From positions 1-52,778 of the IMG/VR virus record IMGVR_UViG_3300021375_001117: a DNA stretch of 52,778 nucleotides; one strand, written 5' to 3'. This document shows positions 17,053 to 24,819 of this stretch, piece by piece. A program made the translations under genes and the position numbers. The DNA is from a virus. Taxonomy: Duplodnaviria; Caudoviricetes. The notes under the pieces were generated by a model that made no database searches, was not told the origin of the DNA, and saw nothing but the letters and a program-made list of their open reading frames with translations. Every line of letters starts with the position of its first letter. Position 1 is the stretch's first letter.

Positions 17053-17351
17053 TATAAATCTCCTTCTTTAACAAAGACTCCGTCAACCATTTTTCCTTTT
17101 CTGTCTTTGATGTCGTTATATGCTTGTTCCAAACAATCTTCGATACTGAGATTGTTTCGTTCAGCAATGTTAATTAATACTACAATCATATCACCTATAT
17201 CATCTGCTACATCATTGCCTTTACAGATATTATCACTAAGTTCGCCCATTTCTTGAATAAGTTTTGCTAGTTGATCCTTATCTGTTGCACCATCGATTAG
17301 GTTCCTGTCGTGATGCCATTGTGTAATTTTGGATATGTATTCTTCTACCAT
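17052..17351 (-). CDS. MazG-like nucleotide pyrophosphohydrolase
   Basis: KLIQEMGEL...DDIGD and IKDRKG motifs. Confidence 0.85.
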   Translation of the reverse strand: MVEEYISKITQWHHDRNLIDGATDKDQLAKLIQEMGELSDNICKGNDVADDIGDMIVVLINIAERNNLSIEDCLEQAYNDIKDRKGKMVDGVFVKEGDL

Positions 17352-18127
17352 TATAGTTTTCCTTCTTCTCTCATTTGTTCACGTATTTTTGTAGCACTGA
17401 TATCGTGTATAGCATCGTCAAAAACTTCTTGCTCAATTTTATATCCAACATCTCTACCATACGTTATGTTTAGGAGGTTAGGTACAACCTCTATTTTTAC
17501 TTTACCAGCAAAGTTACACAAACTCTGTTGTAAGTTTTCTATAACTTCATATGCTGGAAAAGGATTCTTTTCATCTGTTGGCATATCTCTAACCATCAAA
17601 AACACTTGTCCGTGTTTGGCTAATGCTCTATCAAACAATGCTTGATGTCCAGGATGCCAAGGTTGGAATCTGCCAAGCATCTGTGTAGTAGGTGCTTTGT
17701 TATCCCAAATAAATCGTTGTCCAATTTCATAAGCAATTATTTTAGCATCTACATCACCACGTTGTTCGTGTACATTGTAGTCTGTGGCATAAGGTCTTTC
17801 AAACACTTTGTTTGTATCTTCAAACCTACCTTCTTTAATAGTGTCAATAAACACTTCATAATCTGCATCAAACTCTATTCTTGCATTTCTAAAAGGACAT
17901 ACAAAGTCTGCTATTGCTATTTTGCCTTCTGCTTCTGCTTCAGCACATAAGTCTACCATTCTTTGTTTTTGTCTGAATCTACCTTCTTCAGAAAAGTCCC
18001 AGTCGTCTGCTTCTTCTCTAACTTTATCTGCGTTGAACCAAGCAACTTTATCGCCTAAGTATTCAACTAGTCGTTCTGCTAAATATGTTTTACCACTTCC
18101 TGGTAAACCAAATATTAAAACTCTCAT
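17351..18127 (-). CDS. Adenylylsulfate kinase (CysC)-like domain fused to an HxGH nucleotidyltransferase domain
   Basis: GLPGSGKT, NADKVR, DWDFSEEGR, DFVCP; then GRFQPWHPGH ... ISATKIR. Confidence 0.8.
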   Translation of the reverse strand: MRVLIFGLPGSGKTYLAERLVEYLGDKVAWFNADKVREEADDWDFSEEGRFRQKQRMVDLCAEAEAEGKIAIADFVCPFRNARIEFDADYEVFIDTIKEGRFEDTNKVFERPYATDYNVHEQRGDVDAKIIAYEIGQRFIWDNKAPTTQMLGRFQPWHPGHQALFDRALAKHGQVFLMVRDMPTDEKNPFPAYEVIENLQQSLCNFAGKVKIEVVPNLLNITYGRDVGYKIEQEVFDDAIHDISATKIREQMREEGKL

Positions 18128-19419: not shown

Positions 19420-20876
19420 AAGTACTCCACTTTGGTAACTTTGAATGGATAGTTTGCTTCTTTGTAAAACTTTTTACGTTCTGTAAGATGCCTTTTACTA
19501 TATTTCAAAGTACTTGTAATATCAAAAACTTGCAAATAGTCTTTGTCTTGTGCTTTACGAATACCTCTACCGATACTTTGTATAACACGAACAAAACTTT
19601 TGCCAGGTTCTAATAAGATTAAATTAAAAATTCTAGGTATATTAATACCTGTTGATGCAACACCATATGTTGCCACTATCACTTTGTTATCCATTTTGCT
19701 GACTTCTTTGTATTCTGTTTTTCTATCAGCACTTTTCATCTCGCCACTCACAAATACCCAATCAGGATTTTGTTCGATAAGCAGTTGTCCAGTTTTAATC
19801 CTGTCAACTAATATAAGTGTGTTGCCAGAACCAGATAAGTTTCCAACCATATCAGATAAAAAGTTTATCCTCTCCGGAGATGTCACTAACCATTTTAGTT
19901 CTTGTGCATAATTACTAAAGCCTACGTGGGTATCTATTAATTGTAATACACTTATATCCAAGTTAGCAAGTACTCCTTGCTCTTGTAAATCACTAGCACT
20001 GAGTTGATTAATAACACTACCTAATGTGCTAACAACTCCTGCAAATTCATATTCTTCTTTAGGTATAGTTCCTGTTAGTCCCCAACGAATAGGAACATTA
20101 GCAAACACTCCACCTAATAAGTTTCTTAATACATCTGCTTTTGCTTTGTGTACTTCATCGACCATTACACATACGACATCTTTCATAAACTCGTCTACTG
20201 GAATTGGTGCTTCATCATTCTTTGTTTTCTTTTCTAGTATTGCTAAACTTTGCCAAGTACATATAGTGTGAGTCTTGTCATATTCTTTTCTATCGCCATA
20301 TAACACTCCTACATCTAACCCTAAGTTTTTGTAATCTTCTTCTGTTTGTGTTACTAAGTCTTTGTTAGGCACAATAACGATAGTTCTACCATATGCTTCA
20401 CACTTATGACTTAATACTGCCGTTATAAGAGTTTTACCTGCTCCGGTGGCTACTTCTTGTAAGCCTTGCAAATTGTTTAAGAAACAATTTATAATTTCTA
20501 CTTGGTAATCCCTTAAAATAACAGGCAGTCCTTCTGCAGTATGCCCTTTGGGCCAAGCAATATTATCATAGTCTGTATCTACTACAGGTGTAAATTCAAA
20601 TTTGTATGGGTGTCTGTGGTCTTCTACTTCTATATTGTATCCTTCTTTCTCCACAATAGGTAAAAGTTTATCTAGTAAGTTAAGATAACTTCTGCCACCT
20701 ATGTCGCAGAATCTCACACACCCGTCCCATCTTCCTAGTTTATATGCTGGCATATGATAAGCATAAGGTAAGAAAAACTTTAGTGCATCAGAAATCTTTC
20801 GACGTGTATGCACATCAAGGTCAGTGAATCTAACATTGACCTCGTCTTTAATTACTAATTTCGTTGTTCTTGCCAT
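19416..20876 (-). CDS. uvsW: UvsW-like SF2 DNA helicase
   Basis: WDG, LRDYQ, ATGAGKT, DEVH, GLTGT, QSIGRGIR motifs. Confidence 0.9.
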   Translation of the reverse strand: MARTTKLVIKDEVNVRFTDLDVHTRRKISDALKFFLPYAYHMPAYKLGRWDGCVRFCDIGGRSYLNLLDKLLPIVEKEGYNIEVEDHRHPYKFEFTPVVDTDYDNIAWPKGHTAEGLPVILRDYQVEIINCFLNNLQGLQEVATGAGKTLITAVLSHKCEAYGRTIVIVPNKDLVTQTEEDYKNLGLDVGVLYGDRKEYDKTHTICTWQSLAILEKKTKNDEAPIPVDEFMKDVVCVMVDEVHKAKADVLRNLLGGVFANVPIRWGLTGTIPKEEYEFAGVVSTLGSVINQLSASDLQEQGVLANLDISVLQLIDTHVGFSNYAQELKWLVTSPERINFLSDMVGNLSGSGNTLILVDRIKTGQLLIEQNPDWVFVSGEMKSADRKTEYKEVSKMDNKVIVATYGVASTGINIPRIFNLILLEPGKSFVRVIQSIGRGIRKAQDKDYLQVFDITSTLKYSKRHLTERKKFYKEANYPFKVTKVEYL

Positions 20877-20884
20877 TGTATATT

Positions 20885-20913
20885 ATTTTATGCTCGTTTG
20901 TTTTAAATGTCAA
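20885..20913 (-). promoter_or_regulatory. sigma70-type early promoter for uvsW and downstream genes
   Basis: TTGACA-N17-TAAAAT, 8 nt before ATG. Confidence 0.75.
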
Positions 20914-20916
20914 CCT

Positions 20917-20947
20917 AAAAAAGAAAGTACCCCATAGTGGGGTACTT
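20917..20947 (-). terminator. Rho-independent terminator after the ATPase gene
   Basis: Perfect 10-bp stem AAGTACCCCA-CTA-TGGGGTACTT followed by TCTTTTTT. Confidence 0.88.
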
Positions 20948-20950
20948 CCG

Positions 20951-20991
20951 TGGTCCTCTAGGAGGTTCAGTATGCGAGGACCAAACATACT
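20951..20991 (-). promoter_or_regulatory. Candidate 3' UTR H-type pseudoknot containing an anti-Shine-Dalgarno sequence
   Basis: RNA AGUAUG-UU-UGGUCCUC-G-CAUACU-GAACCUCCUA-GAGGACCA: two interleaved perfect stems of 6 and 8 bp. Confidence 0.55.
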
Positions 20992-22021
20992 AAGCCATTC
21001 TCTTCATACAGGTTGTTTCAGCCAATGCCTTCCAACCCTCAGGCTTCATTTTCTTGAGGTCAGCAATCTTGAGTACCATTCTCAAACTAACTTCTCTAAG
21101 TCTTGCACTCTTCTCTACCATAAAGTCTACAACTTCTTGATTACCTTCGCCTTCAAATTTGTATTCATCAAGCATACCATCTCTAACAATTTGTTTGATT
21201 CTTAGGAACTTGTCTGAGACTTTGTTCATTTCCAAATCAATGTAGTGACATCTTGACATAAGTGCTTCTAAGTGATCCTTAATCTTCTTAGAACGAACGT
21301 TTTCAAAATCAACGTTAGTAATAAAGATTGCTGATCCTTCAAAGTCAAACCTATCTGGAATACCTTCCCTTCTCAATGCGTGGGATTCTGACTTCCAACT
21401 TACAGTTCTTTTCTTGCCTGAGTCTAAAACTGCCTTTAACATATTTAGGCAAACTTCATCAAACAATACTGTATCACAGTCATCAAATATAATAACATCT
21501 CCTTTAGCAGAGTTGTTAAACAATGTTTGGTACAAACCAATTGGAGTCATTGAACCTTTACAGAATTCTGTTTTTGGTCCTTTGCCTTTCAGTTTGTTAA
21601 ACATATCGTATTTGTCCATTTCAGTTTCAACACCAAAACTCTTACCAACACCTGGAGGGCCACTTAATATAAGTCCTCTCACAGTACCTTTGATAACTGC
21701 TCTAGTCATCTCAGTTAGTATATCGAATCTTGTTTTGATTCTGTCTAGTGCCTGTTCATCAGTTTCTTGCAGTTCTGCAGGAGTGCTTTTTTGCACTATT
21801 GCCTGTGCTTCAAACTCGTGTTCTGAAACTTTTTCAAAAGACGTAATGTCGTTGACAATAATTCTTGCACTTGGATACTTAGGTCCTAGTACTTTACTAG
21901 CATCAACTGTTAGAAACATTCCTTTCTTTCCAAAAGTAATGTCTTTGATTAATGGGAAAATGGCGTTCTTTATTGTGTTACCACGATATTTGCCAGATTT
22001 AATTTTAACGTAAGTTTGCAT
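20990..22021 (-). CDS. AAA+-type P-loop ATPase
   Basis: GPPGVGKS Walker A, IIFDDCD Walker B, FITN sensor, SR arginine finger; GGAGG SD. Confidence 0.85.
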   Translation of the reverse strand: MQTYVKIKSGKYRGNTIKNAIFPLIKDITFGKKGMFLTVDASKVLGPKYPSARIIVNDITSFEKVSEHEFEAQAIVQKSTPAELQETDEQALDRIKTRFDILTEMTRAVIKGTVRGLILSGPPGVGKSFGVETEMDKYDMFNKLKGKGPKTEFCKGSMTPIGLYQTLFNNSAKGDVIIFDDCDTVLFDEVCLNMLKAVLDSGKKRTVSWKSESHALRREGIPDRFDFEGSAIFITNVDFENVRSKKIKDHLEALMSRCHYIDLEMNKVSDKFLRIKQIVRDGMLDEYKFEGEGNQEVVDFMVEKSARLREVSLRMVLKIADLKKMKPEGWKALAETTCMKRMA

Positions 22022-22061
22022 ATAACCTCCTAAAGTATGTATGTTTTAACTTATATATACT

Positions 22062-22089
22062 ATTATACGCCTATTTAGGCAAAAGTCAA
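22062..22089 (-). promoter_or_regulatory. sigma70-type early promoter of the ATPase gene, with a palindromic spacer
   Basis: TTGACT-N16-TATAAT; the spacer contains GCCTA-AA-TAGGC. Confidence 0.7.
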
Positions 22090-22093
22090 CCGA

Positions 22094-22426
22094 CTATTTA
22101 AAAAAACTTTTAACGTTTATACCAAATAACTTCTTGTAATACTTGGCAATGCGTTCTTTAAATATAGGTTTTCTTTCTGGGTTATACTTCTTCTTGAGGG
22201 AAAGATAGTACTCTTCGCTGGATTCTATGTAAAGTTCTTCATTGGGTTCTAATTCATAACCGTTATATTCGCCACCGTTATCTCCGGAGGTTATTAGATA
22301 TCCTCCGTGTTTGTATGTTATAACCATACAACCATTTTGAGCCAGTAACGAACTTGTACTTTCATACTGTTCTATTTCTGCAAAATCTTTCGCAATACGA
22401 TTAATTTTATCAGTATACTGACTCAT
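22094..22426 (-). CDS. Hypothetical protein
   Basis: 110-aa ORF filling the gap between bL33 and the ATPase promoter. Confidence 0.6.
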   Translation of the reverse strand: MSQYTDKINRIAKDFAEIEQYESTSSLLAQNGCMVITYKHGGYLITSGDNGGEYNGYELEPNEELYIESSEEYYLSLKKKYNPERKPIFKERIAKYYKKLFGINVKSFFK

Positions 22427-22432
22427 TACAGT

Positions 22433-22636
22433 TTATTTTGAATGAGGAGGTAGTTTCGCTTCAACAAACCACTCGTGCTTTCTTTTTGCAGGGTTATACT
22501 TTTTAAGTCGTAACTTTCTGTTTTCTACTGTGAGTGTTCTTGTTTTGACAGCCGTGTAATGATATGTATGGTGATCTCTAGTCTCACCTTCTGGTATCAT
22601 ATAAACTAACGTTCTTCTTTTATCTTTCTTTGCCAT
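22433..22636 (-). CDS. rpmG: Ribosomal protein bL33 (cysteine-free type)
   Basis: MAKK..R, Y.Y...K and KLRLKKYNP..RKH..F.EAK match the L33 pattern; 67 aa, basic. Confidence 0.8.
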   Translation of the reverse strand: MAKKDKRRTLVYMIPEGETRDHHTYHYTAVKTRTLTVENRKLRLKKYNPAKRKHEWFVEAKLPPHSK

Positions 22637-22646
22637 AGTTACTTAT

Positions 22647-24386
22647 TTACCAATTATATTGCAAAGTAATTAATACTTCCCTACCACGGTTATCATACCC
22701 TGGTAGAACCTCTACAACATCGTCTAAAGCATTGTTTACTTTAAATGTTAAGTTGTACTTACCCCAAGTCTTAGATGCACTTAAATCTAATCTATTTAAA
22801 TCTTCTAAGTAATCTTCTCCTTCTGGTATTATGTCATACTGCCCTGGTGCTCTTTCTAAGTTTACTGCATACCTGCCTGCAACTGTAACACCATTGAACA
22901 TTTGCTTGTATGTGATTGCTCCCATATACTTGGGCACTCTAGGTTGCTCTGTATCAGTATATGCTAACATTACACCAAACGGACCATAGTTATTAGCAAA
23001 TCTAAAACCTTGTGTGGAGTATTCTCCGCCATTTTCATACGTGGCATTTGTAAAAATATCTTCTGTTACAGCAGGAGTTACAGTAACTTCTCCTGTGTCA
23101 GGATCTGTTGTGGTTACTTCTGGCGTAACTATTATTGTTGTGGTATAACTTGGTTGGTACTCAATTGTTTCTTCGAAATCATATTTGAATACACTTATTG
23201 CGCCAAACCCAATCTCATACCCTACGCCTTCTTCTGGCATTAAATCTTCATTACCATCAACCCAAGCATCACCAAACCTTTCATACAAGTTTGCTTTTCT
23301 AAAACTGTTTCCAATGTTAAAGAAGAACTCGCCTTTTGATAAACCAAATCTCATTGCATTTTGGTCATCGTTGCCAAATCTCAAACCAAAGTTGTAGTTT
23401 AAGGCGAACGAGGCATTAACATTTAAGTATCCTCCAAAGTTTTCATCTTCGTATTTGTTTTCAGTAGCACCCATAGAGTTTATACTTTCTGTATTGTAAA
23501 TGTTTCTTTCACCATCTACACCAAATGCAACATTTAGTTTATTGGAAAGATCCAAATTATTACCAAATCTCACAAAGTCTCTATAACTTTCATTTGCATA
23601 AGTAGGATCTTCTACTGTAAAATATTCAGCACTGGTATAGTTTCTGCCTACTGTGATATAATCATTTCTAATTGCTACGTTATATCTTTCACCTAATTCT
23701 GTACATTCGTTGCTTTGACCCCAATTGTAATCATAACAGTTATCATAATCATATTCATAATCAACAAATTTAGCAATTACTTCAAAGTCCATTGCATCTA
23801 TAATAATTTTTGCTGACTGTTGTTCATAAGTATCTTCTTCATCATTATCATTTCTTGCACTAGCAATAGTATCTTTGAATGATGCTACTTCTAAATTGTT
23901 TGATGATAGTTTTATAAATTGATTTTCTATTCCACTGTCTACAATATTTCTCATTGTCAATCCTCTAGTGATTGTGTCTTCAATAAGAACTGTTCCAGCC
24001 ATTGCTCCAGAGCCATACATAACTCCGTTAGCACCACTAATAACTTTAATTTTTTCTCCTGATGCAATATCGTGTCCAAAATTATACCAAGAGCCGCCTG
24101 GTTCATTAGCAGGGATACCATTTCTAAATACTGCGGTATGAACTGTTTGAGCACCTCTTTCATTATAAAATGCTGAGCCGCCATACCCTCCAGCATTGTA
24201 TGTGAATGCTGGCAAAATCGCTGTCAATATATTAGTATCAGTAGCAGGGTTTGTTTTAACTGTTCTTTCTTGTTGACCCACTACTACAACTTCTTCAATA
24301 TCTGAAGCGAAAGCGAATGCTACCCATAATGGTAAGGTAACAATAATCGTAAATTTTATTATATGTTTGTGAAAAAAATCTTCCAT
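22647..24386 (-). CDS. TonB-dependent outer-membrane receptor
   Basis: Likely start MEDFF at 24386; signal peptide ending AFA; TonB box IEEVVVVG; plug motif G...MYGSGAMAGTV; C-terminal NALD...GR...LQYNW beta strand. Confidence 0.85.
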   Translation of the reverse strand: MEDFFHKHIIKFTIIVTLPLWVAFAFASDIEEVVVVGQQERTVKTNPATDTNILTAILPAFTYNAGGYGGSAFYNERGAQTVHTAVFRNGIPANEPGGSWYNFGHDIASGEKIKVISGANGVMYGSGAMAGTVLIEDTITRGLTMRNIVDSGIENQFIKLSSNNLEVASFKDTIASARNDNDEEDTYEQQSAKIIIDAMDFEVIAKFVDYEYDYDNCYDYNWGQSNECTELGERYNVAIRNDYITVGRNYTSAEYFTVEDPTYANESYRDFVRFGNNLDLSNKLNVAFGVDGERNIYNTESINSMGATENKYEDENFGGYLNVNASFALNYNFGLRFGNDDQNAMRFGLSKGEFFFNIGNSFRKANLYERFGDAWVDGNEDLMPEEGVGYEIGFGAISVFKYDFEETIEYQPSYTTTIIVTPEVTTTDPDTGEVTVTPAVTEDIFTNATYENGGEYSTQGFRFANNYGPFGVMLAYTDTEQPRVPKYMGAITYKQMFNGVTVAGRYAVNLERAPGQYDIIPEGEDYLEDLNRLDLSASKTWGKYNLTFKVNNALDDVVEVLPGYDNRGREVLITLQYNW

Positions 24387-24387
24387 T

Positions 24388-24819
24388 TTAATTCCTGTTT
24401 TTAATAGATAATATAGTGTTGGATGCTGGTAAAAAGTCTTTAAACAATTTATCAACATTCAACACCCGTTTTTTATTATTGTAAGACATCCATATCCACT
24501 TATCTAATTCATCTGTTGTTGAAAGCACCAAGCAATTTTCTAAGAGTGCTTTGTTAAACAGTTTTTCTAAATATGTATTTGCTACTAACAATAAATTATA
24601 TTCTTTTGCAGAGTTAATAATATCTATTGCGTGGTCTTCGTTATCATACTTAATAATTTTTAAATTCAAATCAATTTGGTCTAGAGTGAAATCTATATCG
24701 TTTGGTAAAATTAAAACGTCCTTGTAATCAACATAGCCTTTTGTTTCTTCAAAAGTTTTTGCTAAATCAATTCCGTATTCGATTGCTTGTTGCAAATCTT
24801 GTACTTCAATATTAACCAA
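24388..24819 (-). CDS. Hypothetical protein
   Basis: 143-aa ORF overlapping the uvsY stop. Confidence 0.6.
   Translation of the reverse strand: MVNIEVQDLQQAIEYGIDLAKTFEETKGYVDYKDVLILPNDIDFTLDQIDLNLKIIKYDNEDHAIDIINSAKEYNLLLVANTYLEKLFNKALLENCLVLSTTDELDKWIWMSYNNKKRVLNVDKLFKDFLPASNTILSIKNRN

Follow-up and report, generated by a model that had tools for sequence, protein, structure and literature searches.

Can the translation of a phage gene be controlled from the far end of its own mRNA? This question is raised by an ATPase gene in a stretch of 52,778 nucleotides (nt) of viral DNA, IMG/VR virus record IMGVR_UViG_3300021375_001117, the whole of which is called the window here. All coordinates are positions in the window, and the element lies on its minus strand. 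The gene stands between its own promoter and an intrinsic terminator. The 3′ untranslated region (UTR) holds a segment, called the anti-SD, that is complementary to the Shine-Dalgarno (SD) sequence of the same gene. The two arms are found in the related loci as well, and they change together between clades. The complement in the 3′ UTR probably pairs with its own initiation region, about 1 kb upstream, and controls the translation of this marine jumbo-phage ATPase mRNA. This conclusion is drawn from sequence comparison.

Predicted pairing between the two ends of the ATPase mRNA

In the window, the 3′ UTR segment AACCUCCUAGAG pairs with CUUUAGGAGGUU around the SD sequence over 12 base pairs (bp), including one U·G pair. 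RNAduplex predicts this 12-bp helix, an internal loop and a further 5 bp, with a total energy of -24.8 kcal/mol. None of 111 other 70-nt sense segments of the locus pairs with as good an energy (z = -5.2), and the contiguous helix is matched by none of 96 other segments. Among the 64 open reading frames (ORFs) of at least 80 amino acids that begin with ATG in the window, the ATPase gene is the sole outlier. Its score is 28, while the next is 19 and the mean is 13.9 with a standard deviation of 2.9. Eleven CCTCC motifs on the sense strand were examined, and the only one that is non-coding and matches the start of its own gene is the anti-SD. The complementarity between the SD sequence and the 3′ UTR in the window is far beyond chance.

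The 12-bp end-to-end helix is present in both the minimum free energy (MFE) and the centroid structures of the full-length RNA of 1139 nt. The 3′ UTR of the window alone folds as a hairpin (S2, described below) followed by the terminator, and none of 200 shuffled sequences folds as well (z = -4.9). The 5′ UTR of the window forms no convincing hairpin (-1.6 kcal/mol). The original prediction had described the promoter-ATPase-terminator unit and three pairings between its ends: the 12-bp helix with one G-U pair, GCAUA with UAUGC, and ACAUACU with AGUAUGU. All letters and coordinates of the unit were correct, and the pairings are present at the positions it gave. For the candidate pairing ACAUACU/AGUAUGU, the stop-adjacent arm is counted in three of the four UTR pairs of clade A, the clade of the window.

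A second complement of the ATPase SD region is found elsewhere in the window. At 17470-17479 on the minus strand, inside the ORF 17351-18127, AACCUCCUAA is a perfect 10-nt complement of UUAGGAGGUU. The distance to this site, on the same strand and downstream, is about 4.5 kb, and by our own estimate about 0.05 such matches are expected in the window. The match is probably due to chance, though this site may be a target in trans.

Conservation of the helix in relatives

Relatives were sampled as the best 80 of 224 in viral contigs, the best 80 of 223 in viral contigs with a distant query, and the best 80 of 324 in metagenome contigs. Together with the window locus (L001), the 240 related loci gave 241 loci, 239 of which have a recognisable ORF. 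Eight loci were dropped because a UTR was cut by the contig end. The usable set comprised 231 loci with 128 unique UTR pairs. Helices were searched between positions -24 to +6 and the first 80 nt after the stop codon.

The best contiguous helix covers the SD window or the start codon in all 128 unique UTR pairs. It measures 6 bp in one pair, 7 bp in 25, 8 bp in 25, 9 bp in 44, 10 bp in 7, 11 bp in 7, 12 bp in 9, 13 bp in 6 and 14 bp in 4, and 32 distinct helices occur among the 128 pairs. For the first 56 unique pairs, the observed score is reached by 261 of 8276 non-cognate segments of the same loci, and both arms are single-copy on the sense strand in 49 of the 56 loci (4-7 kb per locus). 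The anti-SD segment of the relatives likewise lies between the stop codon and the terminator. In 31 3′ ends of clades B and H, CTCCCA is the sole invariant block of the UTR and the next C is conserved in 90%, at a mean column identity of 46%.

Several loci of clade B (L062, L036) carry two copies of the anti-SD.

Covariation of the two arms across clades

The arm sequences are specific to the clades of the protein tree, yet they remain complementary, as in UAGGAGGUU/AACCUCCUA, GUGGGAG/CUCCCAC, GUGAGGU/ACCUCAC and GGGGAUGAC/GUCAUCCCC. In clade A (the window and L168), the arms read CUUUAGGAGGUU(A) and (U)AACCUCCUAGAG. In clade G (72-75% identity), they are (A)GUGAGGU(GCUA) and (UAGU)ACCUCAC(U), and the stop codon is often included. 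Clade B has (CU)GUGGGAG(G) and (C or U)CUCCCAC(AG), with one subclade reaching 13 bp (AUGUUGUGGGAGA/UCUCCCACAGCGU). The arms of clade H (L209), UUGGGAGG and UCUCCCAA, show a G-C to U-A change relative to clade B. The helix of clade E, GGGGAUGAC(UAAUA) with (UGUUA)GUCAUCCCC, extends up to 14 bp. Clade F2 has AAAGGGGA/UCCCCUUU, and clade F1 has GAUGACU/AGUCAUC over the start codon. Since pairing is kept while the arm sequences differ between clades, selection appears to preserve the pairing and not the sequence.

The mean score of the cognate pairs, formed by a translation initiation region (TIR) and its own 3′ UTR, is 22.8. With partners from other supertypes it is 15.8 (standard deviation 3.3), and 122 of 798 non-cognate cells reach the cognate score. 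When the partners of seven supertype representatives were permuted, 10 of 5040 permutations reached the observed sum. An anchored alignment of 35 distinct arm pairs, in which five core columns are paired by construction, gives a covariation of 0.322 against 0.187 ± 0.022 for shuffled pairs, and none of 500 shuffles is as high. Double changes occur in five arm columns (GC27/AU7, AU28/GC7, GC27/UA5, GC33/AU2 and UA20/AU5). Covariation between the 5′ and 3′ UTRs had been set beforehand as a test of the claim that a functional antisense copy of the gene's own ribosome-binding site (RBS) resides in the 3′ UTR and acts over about 1 kb. The claim is upheld by the homologues, which keep the anti-SD and whose arms change together.

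Presentation of the SD sequence in a 5′ hairpin

In clades B, G and H, the 5′ UTR folds into a hairpin that shows the SD sequence in a 6-nt loop (GUGGGA or GUGAGG). Of 76 unique 5′ segments, 58 have the SD arm placed in this way; for these three clades alone, the figure is 48 of 49. Across 45 distinct sequences of the stem, 77% of the cells are paired versus 52% after shuffling, and changes on both sides number 80 versus 37. The covariation of the stem is 0.668, compared with 0.223 for shuffled sequences (0/500 as high); slid partners do not exceed 0.187. In 28 of the 45 sequences the stem closes with a U·G pair, which fits an RNA of the sense strand. An SD sequence in a loop, opposite an anti-SD that is either in a loop or unstructured, is the predicted geometry of a kissing interaction.

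Presentation of the anti-SD at the 3′ end

The 3′ UTR of the window contains the elements of an H-type pseudoknot, with a stem S1 of 6 bp at the stop codon and a stem S2 of 8 bp. The three loops are L1 = UU, L2 = G and L3 = GAACCUCCUA, with lengths of 2, 1 and 10 nt, which should be sterically sufficient for a fold of this type. The order of the arms (S1-5′, S2-5′, S1-3′, S2-3′) is that of an H-type pseudoknot, and both helices can form. The pseudoknot is thus a possible fold of the window sequence, whose S1 cannot be displayed by a nested-fold program.

In the sister clade E/F, the anti-SD sits in the third loop of an H-type pseudoknot with the same topology and unrelated letters. Over 14 pairs and 30 sequences, 99.3% of the positions are paired, and three pairs show double changes. 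None of 500 shuffles is as good, slid partners are 25-49% paired, and one S1 pair is G·U in 20 of the 30 sequences. The pseudoknot of the original prediction has indirect support: its elements are present as written and its topology covaries in clade E/F, but the window's own clade offers a single variant, L168 (94% identity), in which the terminal S1 pair is lost. In L168, the long-range helix is 13 bp and the second duplex segment is reduced to UAUG/CAUA.

Other clades present the anti-SD differently. The C-type clade has a separate upstream hairpin in place of S1, and the loop CCUCCCAC of its 3′ hairpin, which displays the anti-SD, is invariant while 5 of the 10 stem pairs show compensatory changes. 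The anti-SD may also be unstructured and adjacent to the stop codon; an arm begins no more than 12 nt from this codon in 82 of the 128 pairs (49/63 in clade B and 28/28 in clade G). In the window, L141 and the L111 group, the long-range helix enters the 3′ arm of S1. Because of this overlap, the pseudoknot and the end-to-end helix are mutually exclusive. The competition between long-range pairing and the pseudoknot stems that had been proposed is thus seen in relatives as well, whose helices reach 14 bp.

A pyrimidine run, GUUCCC(CC), is conserved just upstream of the anti-SD hairpin in C-type and E/F loci (L021:4073-4122, L054:4030-4097). It could be a second copy of the anti-SD or a triplex-forming loop of a pseudoknot.

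Probable control of translation by the 3′ UTR and alternative explanations

We propose that the unit would be transcribed as a monocistronic early message of an uncultured marine jumbo phage, encoding an ATPase of the NrdC.10 family. Its 3′ UTR would carry an anti-TIR, that is, a complement of the SD sequence and, in some clades, of the start codon. Since the 3′ UTR is transcribed last, the nascent RNA would be open, and the completed RNA could close. By analogy with icaR and with synthetic anti-SD sequences, the pairing would compete with the 30S subunit for the SD sequence, so that translation is lowered or limited, possibly together with decay of the mRNA. In the window, S1 would hide part of the anti-TIR. 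The footprint of a ribosome reaches roughly 12-15 nt past the A site. Terminating ribosomes would melt S1, which overlaps the stop codon, and the pseudoknot and the end-to-end helix could be the alternative states of a switch. On balance, the pairing could time expression, give negative feedback or mask the mRNA.

A more specific form of this mechanism is a termination-coupled gate on a closed-loop mRNA, in which terminating ribosomes unzip the mask or the pseudoknot that guards it and thereby feed back to the start. Counted from the stop codon, the mask is at positions 0-3 in clade G and, in most of clade B, at +4 to +7; in the window, it is S1 that overlaps the UAG. Such a gate would count finished rounds of translation at the 3′ end and would either sustain initiation or close the message after a set output. 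It is possible, but we consider it rather unlikely.

Several observations weigh against control of translation by the pairing or limit this reading. The energy z-scores of the family are modest: all 56 are negative, with a median of -1.9, and the cognate pairing takes the top rank in 16 of the 56 loci. Most helices of the family are short. In subclade F1, the helix over the start codon is 7 bp, and 15-20 null segments of the locus score at least as high. The full-length MFE structures pair at least 6 nt of the TIR with the 3′ UTR in 33 of the 56 loci, sometimes off the anti-SD, and in 19 of the 56 this pairing is absent. These structures of relatives are given little weight because MFE folds of 1.1 kb are unreliable. 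In a few UTR pairs, those of L053, L081, L203, L209, L169 and the L036 type, the top helix uses the terminator or another segment, and the canonical anti-SD is also there. The 5′ UTR of L169 is A-type and its 3′ UTR is C-type, which leaves only the GGAGG/CCUCC core. Where the long-range helices are interrupted, G·U and A·C mismatches are equally frequent (5 versus 5), and the two strands are not told apart. Four of the five cultured distant homologues checked (RB69, Acj9, D533 and PC-Liy1) give no signal, and the 7-bp helix of the ATPase gene in the related record G001 ranks 52nd of 449 ORFs. The gene of L169, from a metagenome contig, is itself a mosaic, with a first half about 99% like L168 and a last third 87-93% like L240. 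From its sequence, this locus would be either a recombinant or an assembly chimera.

The same pairing might serve mainly the stability or storage of the mRNA, by protecting it from RNases, by forming an RNase III site, or by masking a message that awaits 3′ processing as in hok. The geometry would be identical, and at 12 + 5 bp the window duplex has sufficient length to have an effect. The icaR pairing makes an RNase III substrate (PMC3868564), and the interaction between the 5′ and 3′ UTRs of Bacillus subtilis hbs is described as controlling RNase action (PMC5737220). Against such a role, the 5′ arm is the SD sequence or the start codon in 128 of 128 pairs and not the extreme 5′ end, and initiation is therefore occluded whenever the helix forms. 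Most of the helices, at 7-9 bp, are also short for RNase III. A main role in stability is thus unlikely. Shielding of GGAG from a T4-type RegB nuclease was also considered, but the search carries no information: G001 and G002 gave no match to PF10715, and the control matched nothing either. The 3′ element could instead act mainly in trans, as a stable fragment of the 3′ UTR or as another copy of the mRNA that pairs with the start region of the ATPase gene or of other genes. A loop that carries the anti-SD and is followed at once by a strong terminator is how 3′-derived small RNAs are typically built, and the sequence data do not separate pairing in cis from pairing in trans. We regard this as improbable, since the complementarity passes beyond the generic SD sequence into gene-specific flanks, up to 14 bp, and the 5′ arm is unique in 49 of the 56 loci. 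That 82 of the 128 pairs have an arm starting so close to the stop codon (12 nt or less) further points to a role in the translation of the same molecule.

Two explanations do without pairing of the RNA. The arms could be sites in the DNA, either an inverted pair bound by a co-evolving protein or recombination sites that flank the gene. Perfect inverted repeats are indeed symmetric between strands, co-evolving operator pairs would also covary, and the wobble counts (5 versus 5) favor neither strand. However, one arm is always on the SD sequence or the start codon, and both lie within one promoter-to-terminator unit. Register and length shift round a fixed 3′ core (AAAGGGGA/UCCCCUUU, GGGGAUGAC/GUCAUCCCC, GAUGACU/AGUCAUC), which fits base pairing and not a fixed protein site. 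The arms also lie in loops of local structures with G·U pairs on the sense strand and compensatory changes, and DNA sites are very improbable. The match could also be a coincidence or a by-product, namely a Rho-loading site or the mirror of the RBS of an antisense ORF on the plus strand. The plus strand reads a perfect RBS, AGGAGG-N6-ATG, before a 77-codon ORF (ATG at 20972; 20972-21205) antisense to the 3′ end of the ATPase gene. The frame is also open in L168, and C-rich, G-poor RNA past a stop codon resembles rut sites. Neither alternative explains that the complement tracks the SD sequence of each clade, and an intrinsic terminator directly follows the segment. The antisense ORF was rejected as a gene, because its product differs by eye at roughly one quarter of positions between the window and L168, whose ATPases are 94% identical, and no opposite-strand ATG was seen in the other clades inspected by eye. 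A by-product is hardly credible. Control of translation by pairing between the two UTRs remains the preferred reading.

Two further pairs touch on the spread of the design. In L083 (Pseudomonas phage vB_Pa-PAC2, PP408249.1 234037-235191), a candidate 12-bp helix, GGAGUAGCAUUU/GGAUGCUACUUU, joins the SD region (-12) and the 3′ UTR (+21), and 2 of 93 null segments score as well. The PA5oct-like set consists of L083 and 10 near-identical records that are too alike for covariation. From these sequences, PA5oct-like phages are a possible laboratory system for the same design. In G001, another gene (57461-58216, minus strand) has a perfect 9-bp SD/anti-SD pair, UUUGGAGGA/UCCUCCAAG, at -13/+16. Judged from this pair, genes other than the ATPase gene may share the design.

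Relation to known systems

In the hok/Sok system, the 3′ end of the mRNA folds back on the 5′ region and keeps it translationally inert, and local alternative structures switch. The hok fbi element pairs with an upstream activator element and not with the SD sequence. The product of the hok mRNA is a small toxin, whose gene overlaps a leader ORF; processing at the 3′ end activates this mRNA, and an antisense RNA controls it. As in hok, a 3′-terminal element of the full-length mRNA here is predicted to pair with the 5′ region, where its partner is the SD sequence itself. In contrast, the product here is an ATPase of 343 amino acids and no small toxin, and neither a leader ORF nor a Sok-like antisense RNA was seen; promoter-like sites on the plus strand that could give rise to an antisense RNA occur at chance level only. 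The element is therefore not a member of the hok family. The comparison with hok made in the original prediction is apt for how the element may work, but not for membership.

Two classical phage systems also link distant parts of an RNA. In the MS2 'Min Jou' interaction, a distant segment pairs with a start region and thereby closes it. Ribosomes that translate through this segment, which lies inside an upstream coding region of an RNA genome, open the start region again. In the retroregulation of lambda by sib, a 3′-located element controls the upstream int gene via RNase III and decay, without SD pairing. Neither is an anti-SD in the 3′ UTR of a DNA-phage mRNA.

The closest known case is the icaR mRNA of Staphylococcus aureus, in which the anti-SD UCCCCUG in the 3′ UTR pairs with the SD region, blocks the initiation complex and gives an RNase III substrate (PMC3868564). 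As in icaR, an anti-SD that follows the stop codon and precedes the terminator of the unit is complementary beyond chance to the SD region of that mRNA. Unlike icaR, which encodes a bacterial regulator and has a 3′ UTR of about 390 nt, the family described here is a phage gene family with 3′ UTRs of about 40-100 nt. The SD sequence lies in the loop of a covarying hairpin, the anti-SD either abuts the stop codon or occupies a hairpin or pseudoknot loop, and the arms covary over many lineages. The effects of the icaR pairing were shown by experiment, whereas the pairing here is predicted from sequence. By analogy, the element may work like the icaR pairing and the fold-back inhibition of hok, in a new architecture and host.

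In the hbs mRNA of B. subtilis, pairing between the 5′ and 3′ UTRs is reported to couple stability to translation via the access of RNases (PMC5737220). Two UTRs of one bacterial mRNA pair in hbs as they would here, but the title and opening lines of that report do not describe the pairing as an anti-SD mask. Also in B. subtilis, synthetic and natural pyrimidine-rich sequences that resemble anti-SDs pair in vivo with an RBS that lies hundreds of nt before them; they inhibit initiation, promote decay, and are depleted from genes (PMC12697547, a 2025 preprint by Gill et al.). In contrast to these counter-selected sequences, the anti-SD here is conserved in the 3′ UTR, with specific flanks and presenting structures. 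No description of this design was found in narrow searches of the open-access literature.

The ATPase unit and its surroundings

The window record has an estimated completeness of 13%. The related record G001 comprises 339,794 bases and is estimated to be 91% complete, and the phages are therefore jumbo phages. The features of the unit are collected in Table 1. The 5′ UTR is about 33 nt long, and the structured 3′ spacer between the ORF and the terminator is 40 nt.

Table 1. Features of the ATPase unit and of the elements at its two ends
Feature	Position	Strand	Remarks
Sigma-70-type promoter, TTGACT-16-TATAAT	22062..22089	minus	11/12 consensus positions
Transcription start	about 22054	minus	predicted from the promoter
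5′ UTR ACAUACU	22034..22040	minus	complement of AGUAUGU (20991-20985) at the stop; same letters as S1 3′ arm
5′ arm, CUUUAGGAGGUU	22024..22035	minus	holds the SD sequence AGGAGG
UAUGC over the AUG start	22018..22022	minus	partner of GCAUA (20975-20971); second, 5-bp duplex segment
Coding sequence, 343-amino-acid P-loop ATPase, NrdC.10 family (phrog_1250)	20990..22021	minus	phrog_1250 E = 1.6e-83
S1 5′ arm, AGUAUG	20986..20991	minus	overlaps AG of the UAG stop
S2 5′ arm, UGGUCCUC	20976..20983	minus	8-bp hairpin in MFE and centroid structures of the isolated 3′ UTR
G and S1 3′ arm, CAUACU (20974-20969)	20969..20975	minus	GCAUA alternatively pairs with the start-codon region
Anti-SD arm, AACCUCCUAGAG	20956..20967	minus	in the S2 loop (pseudoknot loop 3); shares the first 3 nt of the S2 3′ arm
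S2 3′ arm, GAGGACCA	20951..20958	minus	fold of the isolated 3′ UTR
Intrinsic terminator	20917..20949	minus	stem-loop 20949-20923; 12-pair stem, 3-nt loop, then U tract
Promoter of next gene	20913-20885		past the terminator

The match of the ATPase to the phrog_1250 profile spans residues 4-340. RB69 and Acj9 nrdC.10 are homologues with about 33-34% identity, and the closest cultured relatives are those of the PA5oct-like Pseudomonas jumbo phages (40.8% identity). Beyond the P-loop, only weak AAA, Lon and DnaI matches were obtained, and neither a solved relative nor a further curated family was found. A megablast search of the unit against GenBank phages gave no match. The Rfam search that the original prediction had suggested as a check yielded no family: the best match in the window region was sbrA, below the gathering score (16.6 bits versus 45 needed, E = 6), and eight related loci gave only transfer RNAs (tRNAs).

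Metatranscriptomes were also considered. Fourteen runs contain at least half of the sampled words of the window, and 20 rows from 13 studies contain any part of it. Over 20300-22618, the perfect contigs of one run are confined to 20942-21978, inside the unit. Two other studies have contigs with ends at 22052 and 22043, close to where transcription is predicted to start, and in a fourth run the whole stretch is covered by an L168-like strain. These contigs hint only weakly at the predicted transcription of the unit, since contigs cannot show transcript ends, RNA libraries may contain DNA, and uncovered parts prove nothing.

Close to the predicted transcription start, 39 of 86 unique upstream segments, drawn from different clades, carry the motif WAGTTWAW (e.g. 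UAAGUUAAA). This motif is located at -33 to -24 from the ATG in relatives and at about 22046-22053 in the window. The window contains no tRNA genes, and four are found ahead of the ATPase unit in the contig of a related phage (L006:881-2285). A protein of 603 amino acids encoded in the window (22647-24458, minus strand) gives a match to the Plug domain of TonB-dependent receptors (PF07715, E = 1.1e-9, residues 67-156), which is unusual for a phage gene.

Implications

Documented cases of long-range self-interaction in bacterial mRNAs are few. Three reports are cited in the Discussion of the preprint on B. subtilis (PMC12697547), and the abstract of the icaR study terms its own case a 'singular example' (PMC3868564). 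The family described here provides dozens of natural variants whose SD and anti-SD sequences co-vary, together with the structures that present them. It is now testable how 5′-3′ communication within prokaryotic mRNAs works, how it is tied to termination, and why an anti-SD that is otherwise counter-selected is kept. If the termination-coupled gate were true, it would be a prokaryotic counterpart of the 5′-3′ communication of eukaryotic mRNAs, evolved in jumbo phages. The element is also a compact natural part, consisting of a 5′ hairpin and a 3′ tag of about 10-40 nt, and the arm pairs of the clades could serve as orthogonal pairs for tuning expression. For the phages themselves, the conserved pairing flags the NrdC.10 ATPase as a gene that may be under tight dosage control.

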